64,000 nt of DNA from Escherichia phage CMS-2020a. Position numbers and translations under genes: made by a program. This document shows, one piece after another, positions 1 to 31,936 of this stretch (the stretch's first letter is position 1; every line of letters begins with the position of its first letter). The notes under the pieces are model-generated. The model searched no databases and was not told where the DNA came from. It worked only from the letters and a program-made list of their open reading frames with translations. Location: the sequence record CP053388.1. One strand, written 5' to 3'.

Positions 1-1095
1 ATGTCCACAAAAAATAAAAAAGGTAAAAATAACAAAGAAGTAGAAGATAACATCGACAACTTTGAAGAAGGTTCCCTTGAATTGTACACAGGGGAACTTG
101 TCCCTAATAGCAACAATACAGTCCAACCAATTGCGTTGATGCGACTGGGGTTGTTCGTCCCCACGCTTAAGGGAACAAAATACAGTAAACGTAACAAGCC
201 AAATGAGATCGATGCTTCAAAGGAGCTTGTCCAGCTCGAAGTAGCCCGTTCTGAAGGCTATTCCGATATCAAGATAACCGGTCCTCGTCTCGACATGGAT
301 CATGATTTCAAAACGTGGGTGGGCGTTGTGCGTTCGCTGGCAGAATACGGCGAACCTAACGGTCGTGTCGAGTTAAGCATCACGAAATTTGCTAAGTTTT
401 GTGGCTATCCATCGTCACAGATCCGCAAAACACTCCGCGACCGGCTTACAAACAGTCTTTTGAAGATCATGCGTACAACTCTGTCTTTCCAGAGAACGTA
501 TGAAGAAAAGAACGTCGACGGCTCTAACAAGATCTCGCTTCTGATGGTGCACCTCATCAATAGCGTGGACTACAACGAGCAGAAAGATACGGTGGTGTTC
601 TATGCAGAACCGAAGCTGGCCGAACTATATCGCTTTGACCATAAGGTTCTTTTGCAGTTAAAGGTTATCAATAAGCTACCACGCAAAGAAACAGCACAGG
701 CTCTGTACACCTTCATCGAAAGTCTTCCAACCAAGCCTGCGCCGGTATCGCTTGCTCGATTGCGTGCGCGACTCAATTTGAGTAGCAGGAATGTCAGCTC
801 GCAGAATCAGACTATACGTAACGGCTTAAAAGCTCTCCAAGATTTGGGCTATCTCGAATACAGCGAGATTAAGCGTGGGCGGTCGATCTATATCCAGATT
901 CACAGCCGCAATCCAAAACTCAAAGTCGCACCGCCAAAACCTGAAGACATCGAACCCAAAAAACCAGATGAGAAAGCTGGGGAAATTGATGCCAAACAGA
1001 ACATTATCAACAAGATAACCGAACTTTCGCAGAATTTGACGCCTGAAAATATCAAGATGATTGAGATCCTTTCCAATAGTCTCAAACTGCTTTGA
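1..1095 (+). CDS. putative plasmid-type replication initiator (iteron-binding Rep); ORF starts at window base 1, so the true 5' end is unverified
   Basis: 364-aa ORF with basic N-terminus, immediately followed by an array of 15-bp direct repeats; call is by context, no catalytic motif seen. Confidence 0.5.
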   Translation: MSTKNKKGKNNKEVEDNIDNFEEGSLELYTGELVPNSNNTVQPIALMRLGLFVPTLKGTKYSKRNKPNEIDASKELVQLEVARSEGYSDIKITGPRLDMDHDFKTWVGVVRSLAEYGEPNGRVELSITKFAKFCGYPSSQIRKTLRDRLTNSLLKIMRTTLSFQRTYEEKNVDGSNKISLLMVHLINSVDYNEQKDTVVFYAEPKLAELYRFDHKVLLQLKVINKLPRKETAQALYTFIESLPTKPAPVSLARLRARLNLSSRNVSSQNQTIRNGLKALQDLGYLEYSEIKRGRSIYIQIHSRNPKLKVAPPKPEDIEPKKPDEKAGEIDAKQNIINKITELSQNLTPENIKMIEILSNSLKLL

Positions 1096-1627
1096 TATGC
1101 TGTCAGCGGTGAAATGTATGCTATCAGCGGCTATTTTTCTGAAAAGTATGCTGTGAACGGTTAAAGATATGCTACCAGCGGTATAGTGAGATAAACGTAT
1201 GCTGTGAGCGGTAAATCATCTATCACCACTCAATGCTCTGGCATACCTCCCCAGTGGTTACTAACCTCGAAGAGTGCATTCCATATAGGTTTGCGCTCAC
1301 TAACATTCTATTGCTATTGCGCTGATTGCTTGTAGTGAAAGGCATTTATTGCCTGCTACTCCCTGATAGAACGTATGCTGTCAGCGGTGTTTTATTGAGG
1401 AATTTTTGTTTGGATATGCTATCAGCGGTAATTAATGGTATATGTCAGACATTCGTATGCTGCCAGCGGTAATTTTGTTCTGGTTATACCCATACCGGGA
1501 CACATTATTCATGCAATTTCTTAAGTATGCTGTCAGCGGTAAAAAATCGAGTAAAGTATGCTGTGAGCGGTGAGATAGACTCTCGATATGCTATCAGCGG
1601 TAGTTGATTGTGTATGCTGTCAGCGGT
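1095..1627. repeat. iteron array: 12 direct copies of TATGCT(R)(Y)(S)AGCGGT in two clusters (5 copies 1095-1212, 7 copies 1374-1627) separated by ~160 bp
   Basis: copies read at 1095, 1117, 1147, 1168, 1198, 1374, 1415, 1456, 1526, 1557, 1587, 1613. Confidence 0.85.
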
Positions 1628-1643
1628 GACGACTATGAAATAT

Positions 1644-1665
1644 GACTGCGGAACGTGCCGCAGTC
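1644..1665. terminator. hairpin GACTGCGG-N6-CCGCAGTC between convergent genes
   Basis: perfect 8-bp inverted repeat between end of iteron array and stop of minus-strand ORF at 1675. Confidence 0.4.
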
Positions 1666-1674
1666 AGTTTGCAT

Positions 1675-1887
1675 TTAGTGTATTTTCTTTAACAGACCCC
1701 AAAGTGTTCCGGCTTTTGTAGTCAGTTTTCCTGTTTCTGGATCGTACATACGCCATTCACGCCGCTGGTGGACGATATACCCATCTTCACGTTCCAGACG
1801 CTCAAGAATGCCAGGCTGCTTGAAACCCTTAGCACGCCAGTAGCCGCTTGTTTTCTCGATTTCCAGACCTGCCAGTGTTAATGCCAT
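1675..1887 (-). CDS. hypothetical protein (70 aa)
   Basis: ORF whose stop region abuts start of next gene; last gene of leftward operon. Confidence 0.4.
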   Translation of the reverse strand: MALTLAGLEIEKTSGYWRAKGFKQPGILERLEREDGYIVHQRREWRMYDPETGKLTTKAGTLWGLLKKIH

Positions 1888-2222
1888 TACCCAACCTCCT
1901 TGCAGTCATCGAAAAGGTAGCTTTGCTGAGAAGCGTGAACGCCATAGAAGCCCTTGTATTTGTTGTATACGAAGTGGTCTTCTCCGACGCCGGTTAATTT
2001 GCCATTACGATTTGTGAGATATGGGGATGACAACACTCGATCGTCACGCACAACATAGAACTGGTCGCCGCTGTCTACGACCATCGCTCCATATGGTGCT
2101 TTTATGACGTCGGTAAGAGCGCCATTCTTAACGTCGGCTACAGACATTTCACACTGATAAACAGTGGTGTCGGCCACAACGATCGAAGAAAGAAACAACA
2201 GCGCGAATGGGATGGTCTTCAT
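1887..2222 (-). CDS. secreted/periplasmic hypothetical protein (111 aa)
   Basis: N-terminal signal-peptide-like segment MKTIPFALLFLSSIVVA; start overlaps stop of upstream small ORF (ATGA). Confidence 0.5.
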   Translation of the reverse strand: MKTIPFALLFLSSIVVADTTVYQCEMSVADVKNGALTDVIKAPYGAMVVDSGDQFYVVRDDRVLSSPYLTNRNGKLTGVGEDHFVYNKYKGFYGVHASQQSYLFDDCKEVG

Positions 2223-20439: not shown

Positions 20440-20526
20440 TGGCGGAGAGTAATGGAATCGAACCATCATCGCTTGCGCAATGGGACGGTTTTCAAGACCG
20501 CTTGAGCACCATGCTCCCTACTCTCC
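20440..20526 (-). tRNA. tRNA-Ser (anticodon TGA), type II with long variable arm
   Basis: hand-folded: acceptor GGAGAGT/ACTCTCC, anticodon loop CTTGAAA, T-loop TTCGATT, encoded CCA; D-arm somewhat atypical. Confidence 0.55.
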
Positions 20527-20750
20527 GGCCGTTGTGGTGGCCGGTACTGAATCTCCGGCATACGGTGCAGCCAATTAGGACTACGGACGATCACCGCTCG
20601 CGAAAGGGAAGATTTGCGGCCGCATTTCCCTAACACCCAAGAAAGCTATCGCATCAGTCTGCGAATCCACCACAACGGTAAGATCACTACCTTTCGACCA
20701 GTCATTGTGCACATGAACGACGATTAACCGTAATGATCTTATCGTTGTAT

Positions 20751-20826
20751 TGGTGCCGGTTAACGGACTCGAACCGCTGACATCCTGCTTACAAGGCAGG
20801 CGCTCTACCAACTGAGCTAAACCGGC
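20751..20826 (-). tRNA. tRNA-Thr (anticodon TGT)
   Basis: hand-folded cloverleaf: acceptor GCCGGTT/AACCGGC, D-stem GCTC/GAGC, anticodon loop CTTGTAA, T-loop TTCGAGT, CCA encoded. Confidence 0.8.
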
Positions 20827-20830
20827 AATT

Positions 20831-20917
20831 TGGTGGGGAGTGATGGAGTCGAACCACCCGAGTCGCCATGACAGTAGATTTACAGTCTACACCGCTACCT
20901 CTACGGACTAACTCCCC
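20831..20917 (-). tRNA. tRNA-Tyr (anticodon GTA), type II
   Basis: acceptor GGGGAGT/ACTCCCC, anticodon stem-loop GTAGA-CTGTAAA-TCTAC, long variable arm, T-loop TTCGACT, CCA encoded. Confidence 0.7.
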
Positions 20918-20922
20918 TAAAT

Positions 20923-20997
20923 TGGCGATGGTGGGTGGATTCGAACCACCGACCAGTTGGTTAACAGCCAACTGCTCTACCGCTGAGCTACACCATC
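20923..20997 (-). tRNA. tRNA-Asn (anticodon GTT)
   Basis: clean cloverleaf: acceptor GATGGTG/CACCATC, D-stem GCTC/GAGC, anticodon loop CTGTTAA, T-arm GGTGG-TTCGAAT-CCACC, CCA encoded. Confidence 0.85.
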
Positions 20998-29791: not shown

Positions 29792-30151
29792 TTAACCTTT
29801 CTTCATCAACTCTCGTTTGATTTCATCGGTACGCATCGTGACATCGGCAGCGGTGATCGCCTCATTCAATTTCACGATGTCCTCGATTTCCTGCGGTGAC
29901 TTCTCTGCCAGATGGAAAATGGCTGCTCGAATCACGTCAGAACGAGTGAACTTCTCGAAGCGAGGGATGAACTTCATCATCTCCAGCAGTTCGAAGTATT
30001 CGTCCTCCAGTGACATTGTGCGGCTTTTAATTTTCTCTTTGCCACGAGTCGGGCGTCCCTGTGGTCTGACTGGTTGGCGCAAAGGAGTTGTGTTCTTAGC
30101 CGGTGCATCAGGCTCTTTGCGCTTTGCTAGGTCACCCATTTTCATGGACAT
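29792..30151 (-). CDS. ribbon-helix-helix centromere-binding protein (ParG-like small partition protein)
   Basis: 119 aa, basic N-terminal tail, RHH-like segment MSLEDEYFELLE; start overlaps parA stop. Confidence 0.5.
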   Translation of the reverse strand: MSMKMGDLAKRKEPDAPAKNTTPLRQPVRPQGRPTRGKEKIKSRTMSLEDEYFELLEMMKFIPRFEKFTRSDVIRAAIFHLAEKSPQEIEDIVKLNEAITAADVTMRTDEIKRELMKKG

Positions 30152-30819
30152 TATTCTTCTTCCTCCAGACTCAACAGATAATCTACAAATTCTTCAAACT
30201 CGGCTTCCGCCTTTTTGTCGCGCTCGCTACCGGTCATTTCAAAGATAGAACGACCAGACTCTTCCGCATCATCATAGACGTTGCGGTTATACAGATTGAC
30301 TGGCGCAGACTCGATTCCAAACGTCTCAACAATCTCTTTAGCCGCCAGAATGCGAGACACTTGTGATGGCAAAGCCGGGCACTGGTTCATGACCGCGCGG
30401 ACCTTCACTTTATCGTTTACATTGCGAACATTGTCGATAATAGGATCGATGTCACGTAAAGATTTCAAATCACGACGCTTAGGACGCAGCGGGATAATGA
30501 TAACGTCAGCCATCAGCATCGCTTGTCGCTGAATTTCGGAGTCGAAGCCACCAGCATCTACCACTACAAACTCAGCTCTACCCTGAAGCGATTTTAGGTG
30601 CTTAATGATGTCATCCTGAACGTATGCAAAAGGAATCAGCTCAAGGTCTTCGTTCTGTCGACGGTCTTCACACCAGCTCGTTGTCGTGCGCTGAATATCT
30701 ATATCGGTAATATAAACCTTCTTCTTCTTTTTGACTTTCAGGCAAACGGCAATTTGCTGGGCAACGGTGGATTTGCCAGGCCCGCCCTTTGTGCCGCCAA
30801 CCACAAAGATCTTGGTCAT
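30151..30819 (-). CDS. parA: ParA/Soj-family partition ATPase (short type Ib)
   Basis: deviant Walker A GGTKGGPGKST; 222 aa. Confidence 0.8.
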   Translation of the reverse strand: MTKIFVVGGTKGGPGKSTVAQQIAVCLKVKKKKKVYITDIDIQRTTTSWCEDRRQNEDLELIPFAYVQDDIIKHLKSLQGRAEFVVVDAGGFDSEIQRQAMLMADVIIIPLRPKRRDLKSLRDIDPIIDNVRNVNDKVKVRAVMNQCPALPSQVSRILAAKEIVETFGIESAPVNLYNRNVYDDAEESGRSIFEMTGSERDKKAEAEFEEFVDYLLSLEEEE

Positions 30820-31137
30820 TGGAGAGTTCCCTTTGCGTATATAATTATCGTCTGAAACAACTTGTTTTCTTATATGTGATATAGCCTAAATGCCTACGGC
30901 TGCGGTGTAAAGGTTAAATGGTAGGTTGTGATTAACAATTGGCAATCATAGCTTGTATTTGTCTGTTGAAAAAAGTAACAATGACCTCTATATTACAAGT
31001 ACGGTGATATGCCGTACACAATTTGATAATGCACACGTAATGGGCTATAGCCTTTTAAAGTAATTTTTGAGTCGAAAACTCAGTTTGAACAGAGGAGATT
31101 GATGGCCTTCCTACATCACGGCCATCAGGAGGAATAC

Positions 31138-31407
31138 ATGTCAGCACTAAAAAAGCAGCGCATCGATTTGAGATTAACCGATGACGATAAAAGCATCATC
31201 GAGGAAGCTGCCGCAATGTCTAACCAGAGCATTACTCAGTTTATGGTTAGCAGTGCATCTGAACGTGCCGTGAAAGTTATAGAGCAACACCGTAGACTAG
31301 TTCTGAATGAAGAATCCTGGAATCTGGTTATGGACGCTATAAGCAATCCTCCGGCACCGAACGACAAGCTGAAACGAGCTGCTGATCGTCTGAAAAGCAT
31401 GGAGTAG
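31138..31407 (+). CDS. DUF1778-type (TacA-like) RHH antitoxin
   Basis: small ORF 8 bp upstream of GNAT gene; start set at ATG 31138 with AGGAGG RBS. Confidence 0.6.
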   Translation: MSALKKQRIDLRLTDDDKSIIEEAAAMSNQSITQFMVSSASERAVKVIEQHRRLVLNEESWNLVMDAISNPPAPNDKLKRAADRLKSME

Positions 31408-31414
31408 TTTACTC

Positions 31415-31936
31415 GTGAGCAATACAACGATAGAGATTTTCTCTGGAGAGAAAGATTATGATCTAAACGGTTTTGATTGCGGCGAAGAGTCACTAAACGC
31501 CTTTTTAGCCAACCACTTAAAAAGGCAGCATGAGGGAAAAATTCTTCGTGCTTATGTGCTTTGCACTCAAGAAGAAAGGCCAAAAGTGCTAGGATATTAC
31601 ACTTTGTCAGGTAGTTGTTTTGAAAAGGAGTCCTTACCTTCAAGAAGCAAACAAAAGAAGGTTCCTTATCGGAATGTTCCAAGTGTTACTTTGGGTAGGC
31701 TGGCTTTGGACAAGTCCCTTCAAGGTCAAGGATTTGGCTCAATGCTTGTAACACATGCAATGCGCGTTGTGTACAATGCATCTCTTGCTGTAGGCATTCA
31801 TGGACTTTTCGTTGAGGCGTTAAATGACAAAGCCAAGGCGTTTTATAAAAGTTTAGGCTTTATCCAGCTGGTTGGTAACAACGAGCGTTCTTTGTTCTAT
31901 CCTACAAAATCTATCGAAAAATTGTTCGAAGAATAA
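31415..31936 (+). CDS. GNAT acetyltransferase toxin (TacT/AtaT-like)
   Basis: GNAT motif A LQGQGFGSMLV; operon arrangement with small upstream partner; GTG start. Confidence 0.65.
   Translation: MSNTTIEIFSGEKDYDLNGFDCGEESLNAFLANHLKRQHEGKILRAYVLCTQEERPKVLGYYTLSGSCFEKESLPSRSKQKKVPYRNVPSVTLGRLALDKSLQGQGFGSMLVTHAMRVVYNASLAVGIHGLFVEALNDKAKAFYKSLGFIQLVGNNERSLFYPTKSIEKLFEE

Follow-up and report, generated by a model that had tools for sequence, protein, structure and literature searches.

A predicted P1/RepFIB-type replicon with twelve direct downstream iterons in an SSU5-like Escherichia phage-plasmid

RESULTS

The organization of the locus

The window analysed is a single stretch of 64,000 nt from Escherichia phage CMS-2020a (CP053388.1), read 5′ to 3′. 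Starting at position 1 the plus strand encodes a RepA protein, and then continues one base past the TGA stop (repA ORF 1..1095) as a first cluster of iterons (beginning at 1096). After a spacer the iterons resume as a second cluster, following which the strand passes through a G+C-rich hairpin and enters the 3′ end of a convergent gene. Genes for partition and for a toxin–antitoxin pair lie much further to the right. The features are itemized below.

1..9, plus strand: weak DnaA-box-like 9-mer ATGTCCACA, overlapping the start codon, with 2 mismatches to TTATCCACA
1..1095, plus strand: repA, 364 aa; iteron-binding initiator of the P1 RepA / RepFIB family by homology
1096..1212, plus strand: downstream iteron cluster 1, 5 direct iterons starting at 1096, 1117, 1147, 1168 and 1198
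1213..1373, no strand: inter-cluster spacer, 161 bp, lacking iterons, Rfam matches and conserved ORFs
1374..1627, plus strand: downstream iteron cluster 2, 7 direct iterons starting at 1374, 1415, 1456, 1526, 1557, 1587 and 1613
1643..1666, no strand: G+C-rich hairpin with 9-bp stems (1643-1651 and 1658-1666), 6 of the pairs G-C
1675..1887, minus strand: cra-like gene, 70 aa, convergent with repA; the first backbone gene beyond the replicon module
30151..30819, minus strand: short ParA-type partition ATPase, 222 aa (Pfam MipZ, AAA_31, CbiA, ParA)
31099..31936, plus strand: TacA antitoxin and GNAT (TacT-like) toxin (Pfam TacA1, E = 8.6e-26; GNAT acetyltransferase domains)

The initiator protein

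A sequence-only reading of this DNA had taken the first ORF for a Rep protein of 364 aa, and the profile searches bear this out. Residues 118-239 match Pfam Rep3_N (WH1) with E = 3.9e-9 (37.5 bits, against a gathering cut-off of 22.4). The match to Rep3_C (WH2) is weak, at 13 bits against a cut-off of 21.1. The protein also matches PHROG 775 (E = 5e-133). NCBIfam has no family for it, and a sequence search of all PDB chains gave no relevant match (the best, with E = 2.1, being an inulinase).

Residues 32-309 (278 aa) are 46% identical to P1 RepA (BLASTP, E = 3e-86). The identity is 48-49% to RepA of the SSU5 / Cyrano type (49% for SSU5 by BLASTP) and 50-53% to IncFIB plasmid RepA (about 53% in alignment), and the closest RepA relatives beyond the sibling group described below are those of the RepFIB (IncFIB) replicons. 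In tblastn the RepA query matches P1, P7 and RepFIB records, and homologues are found in >5,000 plasmid records, mostly labelled as the RepB/RepFIB family. P1 RepA is experimentally characterised, and at the level of sequence the 46% identity to it settles the protein family. Compared with P1 RepA the protein has an extra Lys-rich N-terminal extension of ~31 aa and a C-terminal tail of ~55 aa, the latter being common to the RepA proteins of the window, SSU5 and IncFIB.

The downstream iteron array

A pattern search of the 64-kb window located 12 copies of TATGCTGTCAGCGGT with up to 2 mismatches, all on the plus strand between 1096 and 1627. The sequence-only reading had described twelve repeats directly after the first ORF in a 5+7 arrangement with a gap of ~160 bp, and this is the arrangement found, with a spacer of 161 bp. 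When up to 3 mismatches are allowed there are 13 matches in the window, where shuffled sequence gives 1.7 on average and 5 at most. None of 100 shuffles reached 13, so chance is excluded as the source of the repeats. The thirteenth match (20773, minus strand, 3 mismatches) sits within a tRNA-Thr gene and was rejected as fortuitous.

A weight matrix built from the iterons themselves separates them clearly from the remainder of the sequence. All 12 score at least 25.9 bits; the next site is the tRNA-Thr match at 13.8 bits, and all others score 9 bits or less. The informative core comprises 16-17 bp, RTATGCTGTCAGCGGT[A/G]; the copies of the 15-bp repeat first described are thus real, while the unit is longer than was supposed. 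By the same matrix the iterons of clusters 1 and 2 are indistinguishable in sequence. Their start-to-start spacings are 21, 30, 21 and 30 bp in cluster 1, and 41, 41, 70, 31, 30 and 26 bp in cluster 2. These are irregular yet near to multiples of the helical turn of 10.5 bp, as they are in P1 incA.

The array contains no DnaA box, there is no GATC site from 1069 to 1739 of the window, and no AT-rich unwinding stretch like that upstream of repA is present within the array. Cluster 2 is slightly AT-richer, with 41% G+C.

The origin upstream of repA

The DNA to the left of position 1 was taken from two circular relatives, p09EL50, in which repA is internal, and pEC16-526_1, whose record begins, like the window, with the repA ATG. 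The former differs from the window by 5 mismatches over 2,400 bp, and the latter is 100% identical to it over 1000-1720. The origin occupies the ~250 bp 5′ of position 1, which are the last ~250 bp of circular records starting at the same ATG. Reading towards repA it comprises TTATTCACATATCCACA, a pair of tandem DnaA boxes, then a cluster of six GATC sites within 59 bp (33% G+C), a GC block CCGCGCCACG and finally five iterons. The iterons are spaced by 21, 21, 21 and 23 bp, and the last ends 20 nt before the ATG. They have the same sequence as the downstream iterons, so that the rep gene is flanked by a total of 17 (5 upstream and 12 downstream). The sequence-only reading had anticipated that any origin-proximal iterons would lie outside the window and had pointed to the same region for DnaA boxes; the five iterons are there in these near-identical relatives, and the tandem pair TTATTCACATATCCACA is present in both p09EL50 and pEC16-526_1.

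This upstream stretch aligns column by column with the annotated P1 oriR, with the five iterons in the same register. The strings GGATAGATCC and GATCCC-GATCG-TG-A-GCCGCGCCACG-CTGG are common to the two. The 9-mer ATGTCCACA that overlaps the start codon (1..9) is in tandem with GTGTCCACA, located directly upstream of the window, and is aligned with the P1 stretch that holds the TATCCACA box between incC and repA. This 9-mer may be a counterpart of the right-hand DnaA boxes of P1 oriR. A search of the origin iterons for an embedded sigma-70 promoter of repA, which would suit autoregulation of the P1 kind, gave no plus-strand consensus match at a spacing of 16-18 bp. By eye the one candidate is TTGATA-19 nt-TATGCT, which is not conserved in Klebsiella.

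The spacer, the hairpin and the convergent gene

Within the locus the spacer between the two clusters varies most, with 22 of 160 columns differing among nine natural variants. The weight-matrix scan found no cryptic or inverted iterons within its 161 bp. Two GCGCT(C/G)A stretches that had been spotted by eye score as background in that scan. An Rfam search of the locus with E up to 1 returned nothing, and so no known antisense or regulatory RNA in the spacer. Given that variability, and a spacer length of only ~66 bp in Klebsiella, the 5+7 split looks like poorly constrained, tolerated spacer DNA rather than a division into two functional units.

Beyond cluster 2 the strand can form the hairpin of 1643-1666, with a fold energy of -17.6 kcal/mol (z = -4.2). 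A terminator-like score was obtained for each strand, and the hairpin is placed 9 nt downstream of the stop codon of gene 1675..1887, which is convergent and on the minus strand. Across the nine variants the hairpin has three substitutions, every one of them in the loop, while the stem is unchanged; this fits a terminator of the leftward operon. The sequence-only reading had the array ended by a GC hairpin. The hairpin with its 9-bp stem is indeed there, but its position makes a role as terminator of the convergent leftward gene or operon more probable than membership of the array. It does mark the right end of the replicon module. In SSU5 and Cyrano the counterpart of the gene 1675..1887 bears the annotation P1 Cra-like or 'Cre-associated'; the 70-aa protein itself has no Pfam match.

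The phage-plasmid and the limits of the replicon module

The first 2.4 kb of the window are 99.8-99.9% identical to many non-mobilizable plasmids of ~110 kb from E. coli and Shigella, and their similarity to the deposited records of Escherichia phages CMS-2020a and PhiR41_1 is just as high. The genes of the window, or of its annotated twin, include those for tail, tape-measure and terminase proteins, together with dnaE, primase, a DnaB-like helicase and an integrase. The ParA-type gene is 29 kb from the replicon. That the element is a plasmid prophage had been argued in the sequence-only reading from the iterons together with ParA and a toxin–antitoxin pair. This is now supported by the identification of the ParA-type ATPase, TacA/TacT, tail genes and terminase within the window, and by the deposition of near-identical DNA both as phages and as non-mobilizable plasmids. 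The element is an SSU5-like phage-plasmid that carries phage and plasmid-maintenance genes on a non-integrated circle of ~110 kb. The SSU5 supercommunity is IncFIB-typed and predicted to be a siphovirus (PMC7969092).

The RepA of pECOH89 is 100% identical to that of p09EL50, and is 48% similar to that of pLF82 (PMC3999498). With only 5 differences from p09EL50 in 2,400 bp, and given the identity of those two RepA proteins (PMC3999498), the replicon of the window is assigned by sequence to the pECOH89/p09EL50 type. A pLF82-type replicon is not what the window carries; pLF82 and Cyrano share with it only the backbone from 1675 onward. The PlasmidFinder name for the pECOH89/p09EL50 type is presumably IncFIB(H89-PhagePlasmid).

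Phage Cyrano, the record of which has the same length as pLF82, carries the alternative replicon type and defines the limits of the module. On the right, from 1675 onward, and on the left, in the ASCH-domain gene, it matches the window with ~99% identity. Followed from the left, the similarity extends across the DnaA/GATC core and is lost on reaching the first iteron; homology with the alternative-replicon phage-plasmids resumes at 1675. From these two boundaries the part that differs between backbones with like flanking genes is the specificity unit, comprising the iterons, repA and the control array up to the hairpin.

Comparison with known replicons

The P1 record is annotated, in order, with a DnaA site, five Dam sites, five incC iterons, repA and a set of nine incA iterons that begins on the final nucleotide of the repA CDS. 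The sequence-only reading had likened the arrangement to P1 incA from recall, and both the homology and the layout of the P1 record agree with it. P1 resembles the window in its homologous RepA (46%), the position of the control array at the repA stop, near-helical-turn spacings and existence as a plasmid prophage. Likewise P1 oriR has the tandem DnaA boxes, clustered GATC sites, CCGCGCCACG block and five 21-bp-phased iterons of the window origin. There are also differences. The downstream iterons of P1 number 9 (3 direct and 6 inverted), whereas the 12 of the window are all direct, and the internal subdivision of incA is 3+6 in place of a 5+7 split by a poorly conserved 161-bp spacer. The P1 iteron is 19 bp long, compared with 16-17 bp, and the sequences have diverged (about 8 of 19 positions in register). 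In P1 parAB follows incA, while the short ParA of the window is 29 kb away, and the phage backbone is SSU5-like, not P1-like. The downstream arrays of P1, SSU5, Cyrano, JK004 and RCS47 each contain an inverted block, and that of the window contains none. With a direct-only array of diverged iterons the geometry of pairing could be different from that in P1.

RepFIB (IncFIB), like the window, has iterons on both sides of repA, in the one example locus compared. There the iteron sequence is different, the downstream arrays are shorter, with iterons in both orientations, and the host is a conjugative plasmid where that of the window is a phage.

The SSU5/pLF82 (Cyrano) replicon also lies between an ASCH-domain gene and a cra-like gene, and also has a long downstream array. 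The flanking backbone genes are ~99% identical to those of the window in Cyrano and ~80% in SSU5. The replicon nevertheless has its own iteron, TATCCACTGTAGAGAGTA, about six inverted downstream copies and an origin core that is duplicated upstream.

The Klebsiella IncpKPHS1 replicon (pKPHS1, pPMK1-B and phage pJN2-26) is a sibling with RepA 85-87% identical to that of the window. It has the same iteron consensus, with all copies direct, and a downstream array that is again bipartite, although arranged as 4+4 with a spacer of ~66 bp rather than 5+7 with 161 bp. As published it has four downstream iterons only and no recognised RepA domain (PMC6735626); the present analysis finds more downstream iterons, and a RepA domain, than that description gives.

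Prevalence and natural variation

Of 5,426 complete E. coli genomes, 116 carry the array at its full length, in every case on a plasmid; it was also found at full length in 120 PLSDB records. None of the 168 matches in the complete genomes is chromosomal. Some 51 of the 5,426 genomes match the backbone flank only (from 1675), and so are without the replicon of the window; in the plasmid collection LF82's own plasmid is among these flank-only records.

Nine natural variants with 95-100% identity were compared. All nine keep 12 iterons, with the same spacing to within 1 bp. Variable columns number 6 of 191 in the iterons and 46 of 365 in the DNA between them (Fisher p = 1.7e-4), so that the iterons are four times less variable than their surroundings. 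PhiR41_1, deposited as a complete phage genome, has undergone an exact loss of 87 bp that joins iteron 9 to iteron 12, leaving 9 downstream iterons (5+4). It follows that the direct repeats can recombine and that the full set of iterons is dispensable.

DISCUSSION

The region 1-1670 is very probably the right two-thirds of a theta replicon of the P1/RepFIB type, in which the downstream array serves as a copy-control locus. By homology of protein and DNA alike the array is the counterpart of P1 incA, because the RepA proteins are homologous and the upstream DNA aligns with P1 oriR. In P1, titration and handcuffing by the incA iterons is the established mechanism. According to a review, copy number is modulated through titration and handcuffing where iterons lie downstream of rep (PMC12361487). 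It is most likely that the present array would limit copy number in the same two ways, by titration of RepA and by pairing with the origin. Several properties are consistent with a control locus. Having no DnaA box, GATC site or AT-rich tract, the array lacks what an origin needs; its spacings, like those of P1 incA, approximate whole helical turns; and its iterons are constrained, with the twelve-iteron layout constant in the nine variants. No experiments on this replicon were found in the searchable literature, so the functional assignment rests upon homology to P1.

Extrapolating from P1, RepA monomers would bind the five 21-bp-phased iterons just upstream of position 1, and DnaA would bind the tandem boxes beside them. 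Together RepA and DnaA would open the adjoining AT-rich, GATC-dense stretch, and replication would start. The 12 downstream iterons, acting as incA does, would soak up RepA and so exert negative control. RepA–RepA contacts would also pair the array with the origin iterons, either in cis by looping or in trans between sister copies (handcuffing). As copy number rises initiation would be shut off, and the prophage would be maintained at some one to two copies for each chromosome; the array should also confer incompatibility with like replicons. The hairpin would end leftward transcription, and thereby shield the array.

The alternative that the downstream repeats are themselves an origin, primary or secondary, has some precedent in that certain Rep_3 plasmids have an iterated origin downstream of rep. 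The repeats do share the sequence of the origin iterons, the 21/30-bp spacing of cluster 1 is partly regular and cluster 2 is slightly AT-richer (41% G+C). We nevertheless regard this as very unlikely. It is the upstream region that aligns with the experimentally defined oriR of P1, and the homologous downstream array of P1 is the incA control element; the DnaA box, GATC site and AT-rich unwinding stretch are missing from the array, and PhiR41_1 dispenses with three of its iterons.

Slightly less probable again is a division of labour, in which cluster 1 is incA-like while cluster 2 acts as a RepA-dependent roadblock or switch on the convergent operon, or as a pairing or centromere-like site. 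Cluster 2 adjoins the putative terminator of that operon, and the par locus is 29 kb away. Moreover the length of the split is kept in all the E. coli variants examined, and the Klebsiella sibling is also bipartite (4+4). Yet the two clusters have iterons of indistinguishable sequence, and the spacer is the least conserved segment, measuring 161 bp in E. coli and ~66 bp in Klebsiella. P1 incA too is subdivided, as 3+6, with no need for separate functions, and the three iterons that PhiR41_1 has lost belong to cluster 2. Finally, a reading of the repeats as phage attachment or recombination sites, prompted by the 20-bp attL/attR annotated in MZ779062 (Klebsiella phage pJN2-26) that coincide with two iterons, or as chance tandem repeats, has a negligible probability and is refuted by copy number and context: there are 17 copies around the rep gene, not two, with no integrase adjacent, all matches are on plasmids with none chromosomal in 5,426 genomes, and the shuffled sequences fall short of the 13 matches.

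The replicon is a further and well-populated member of the P1/RepFIB family in an already recognised group of phage-plasmids. It involves no new mechanism, the P1 / IncFIB design being a textbook one. What novelty remains is in the detailed anatomy of the replicon; we found no description in the literature of this anatomy, with its 5 + 12 iterons, every one of them direct, its bipartite array and its delimited module.

A more speculative suggestion, which we consider doubtful, is that the all-direct array of 12 iterons acts as a recombination-prone rheostat of copy number, through unequal exchange between identical iterons, of which the 87-bp loss in PhiR41_1 (12 to 9 iterons) would be an example. 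Were this so, contraction or expansion of the array would alter how many copies of the phage-plasmid are kept, and reversible gene-dosage variants (heteroresistance) would be possible in relatives that carry blaCTX-M-15, such as pECOH89. A 2026 preprint on phage-plasmid heteroresistance reportedly refers frequently to RepA and copy number and makes no reference to iterons.

The value of the mapping is mainly in annotation and typing. Roughly 2% of complete E. coli genomes have this replicon, and CTX-M-15 is found on its relatives (pECOH89). The limits of the module explain how two replicon types occupy one site in backbones with ~99% identical flanking genes, and the map supplies ready-made constructs for tests of copy number and incompatibility. 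It also corrects an over-extended RefSeq start codon, and the labelling of iterons as att in a Klebsiella phage record.

Two replicon modules at a single site

A single site on the phage-plasmid backbone carries either of two replicon modules, the pECOH89/p09EL50 type present in the window or the pLF82/Cyrano type. Their RepA proteins are 48% identical, while the backbone genes flanking the two types are ~99% identical. The boundaries, and the backbone genes that adjoin the replicon, are:

Right module junction: window 1675
Left module junction: ~5880 in L001, a relative's locus extending upstream of window position 1
First two backbone genes (70 aa and 111 aa): window 1675-2222, (-) strand

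Neither of these backbone proteins has a match in Pfam; other records call the 70-aa protein P1 Cra-like or 'Cre-associated', and the N-terminus of the 111-aa protein resembles a signal peptide. Among 5,426 complete E. coli genomes, 116 have the replicon type of the window and about 51 match the backbone flank alone. In the pLF82/Cyrano type the origin core is duplicated (phage Cyrano, L008 1780-2440; SSU5, L004 1890-2440). The first copy carries about three iterons along with its DnaA box and GATC region, and the second, lying ahead of repA, pairs five iterons with a degenerate DnaA/GATC-like region.

The termini of RepA

The RefSeq/PGAP Rep models (WP_001348683.1) are 404 aa in length, starting 120 nt upstream of window position 1 within origin iteron 1. 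The 40 additional codons are the origin iterons themselves, through which the reading frame stays open because the iteron period is 21 nt (7 codons). From the PhiR41_1 record and the alignment with P1 RepA we favour window position 1 as the probable start, giving 364 aa.

Additional RefSeq/PGAP N-terminal stretch: L001 5881-6000, upstream of window position 1
C-terminal tail, residues 310-364: window 928-1092

The tail is shared with SSU5 and IncFIB RepA, whereas P1, JK004 and RCS47 RepA lack it. Its first part is an acidic linker rich in Pro, after which comes a helix-like, amphipathic motif that is rich in Leu and Glu and weakly conserved (in the window, for example, LTPENIKMIEILSNSL).

Iterons in related phages and outside the replicon

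In phage PhiR41_1, whose record names K-12 MG1655 as host, a deletion of exactly 87 bp between a pair of consensus iterons (L002 4060-4075, corresponding to window 1526-1627) has removed three of the 12 downstream iterons. In Klebsiella phage pJN2-26 (MZ779062) two annotated attachment sites fall on RepA iterons either side of repA, and these labels are almost certainly mis-annotations.

attR, 20 bp: L005 (pJN2-26) 1378-1397
attL, 20 bp: L005 2648-2667
tRNA cluster (Ser-TGA, Thr-TGT, Tyr-GTA, Asn-GTT): window 20440-20997, (-) strand

The sole iteron look-alike outside the replicon (window 20773-20787) lies within tRNA-Thr of this four-gene cluster.
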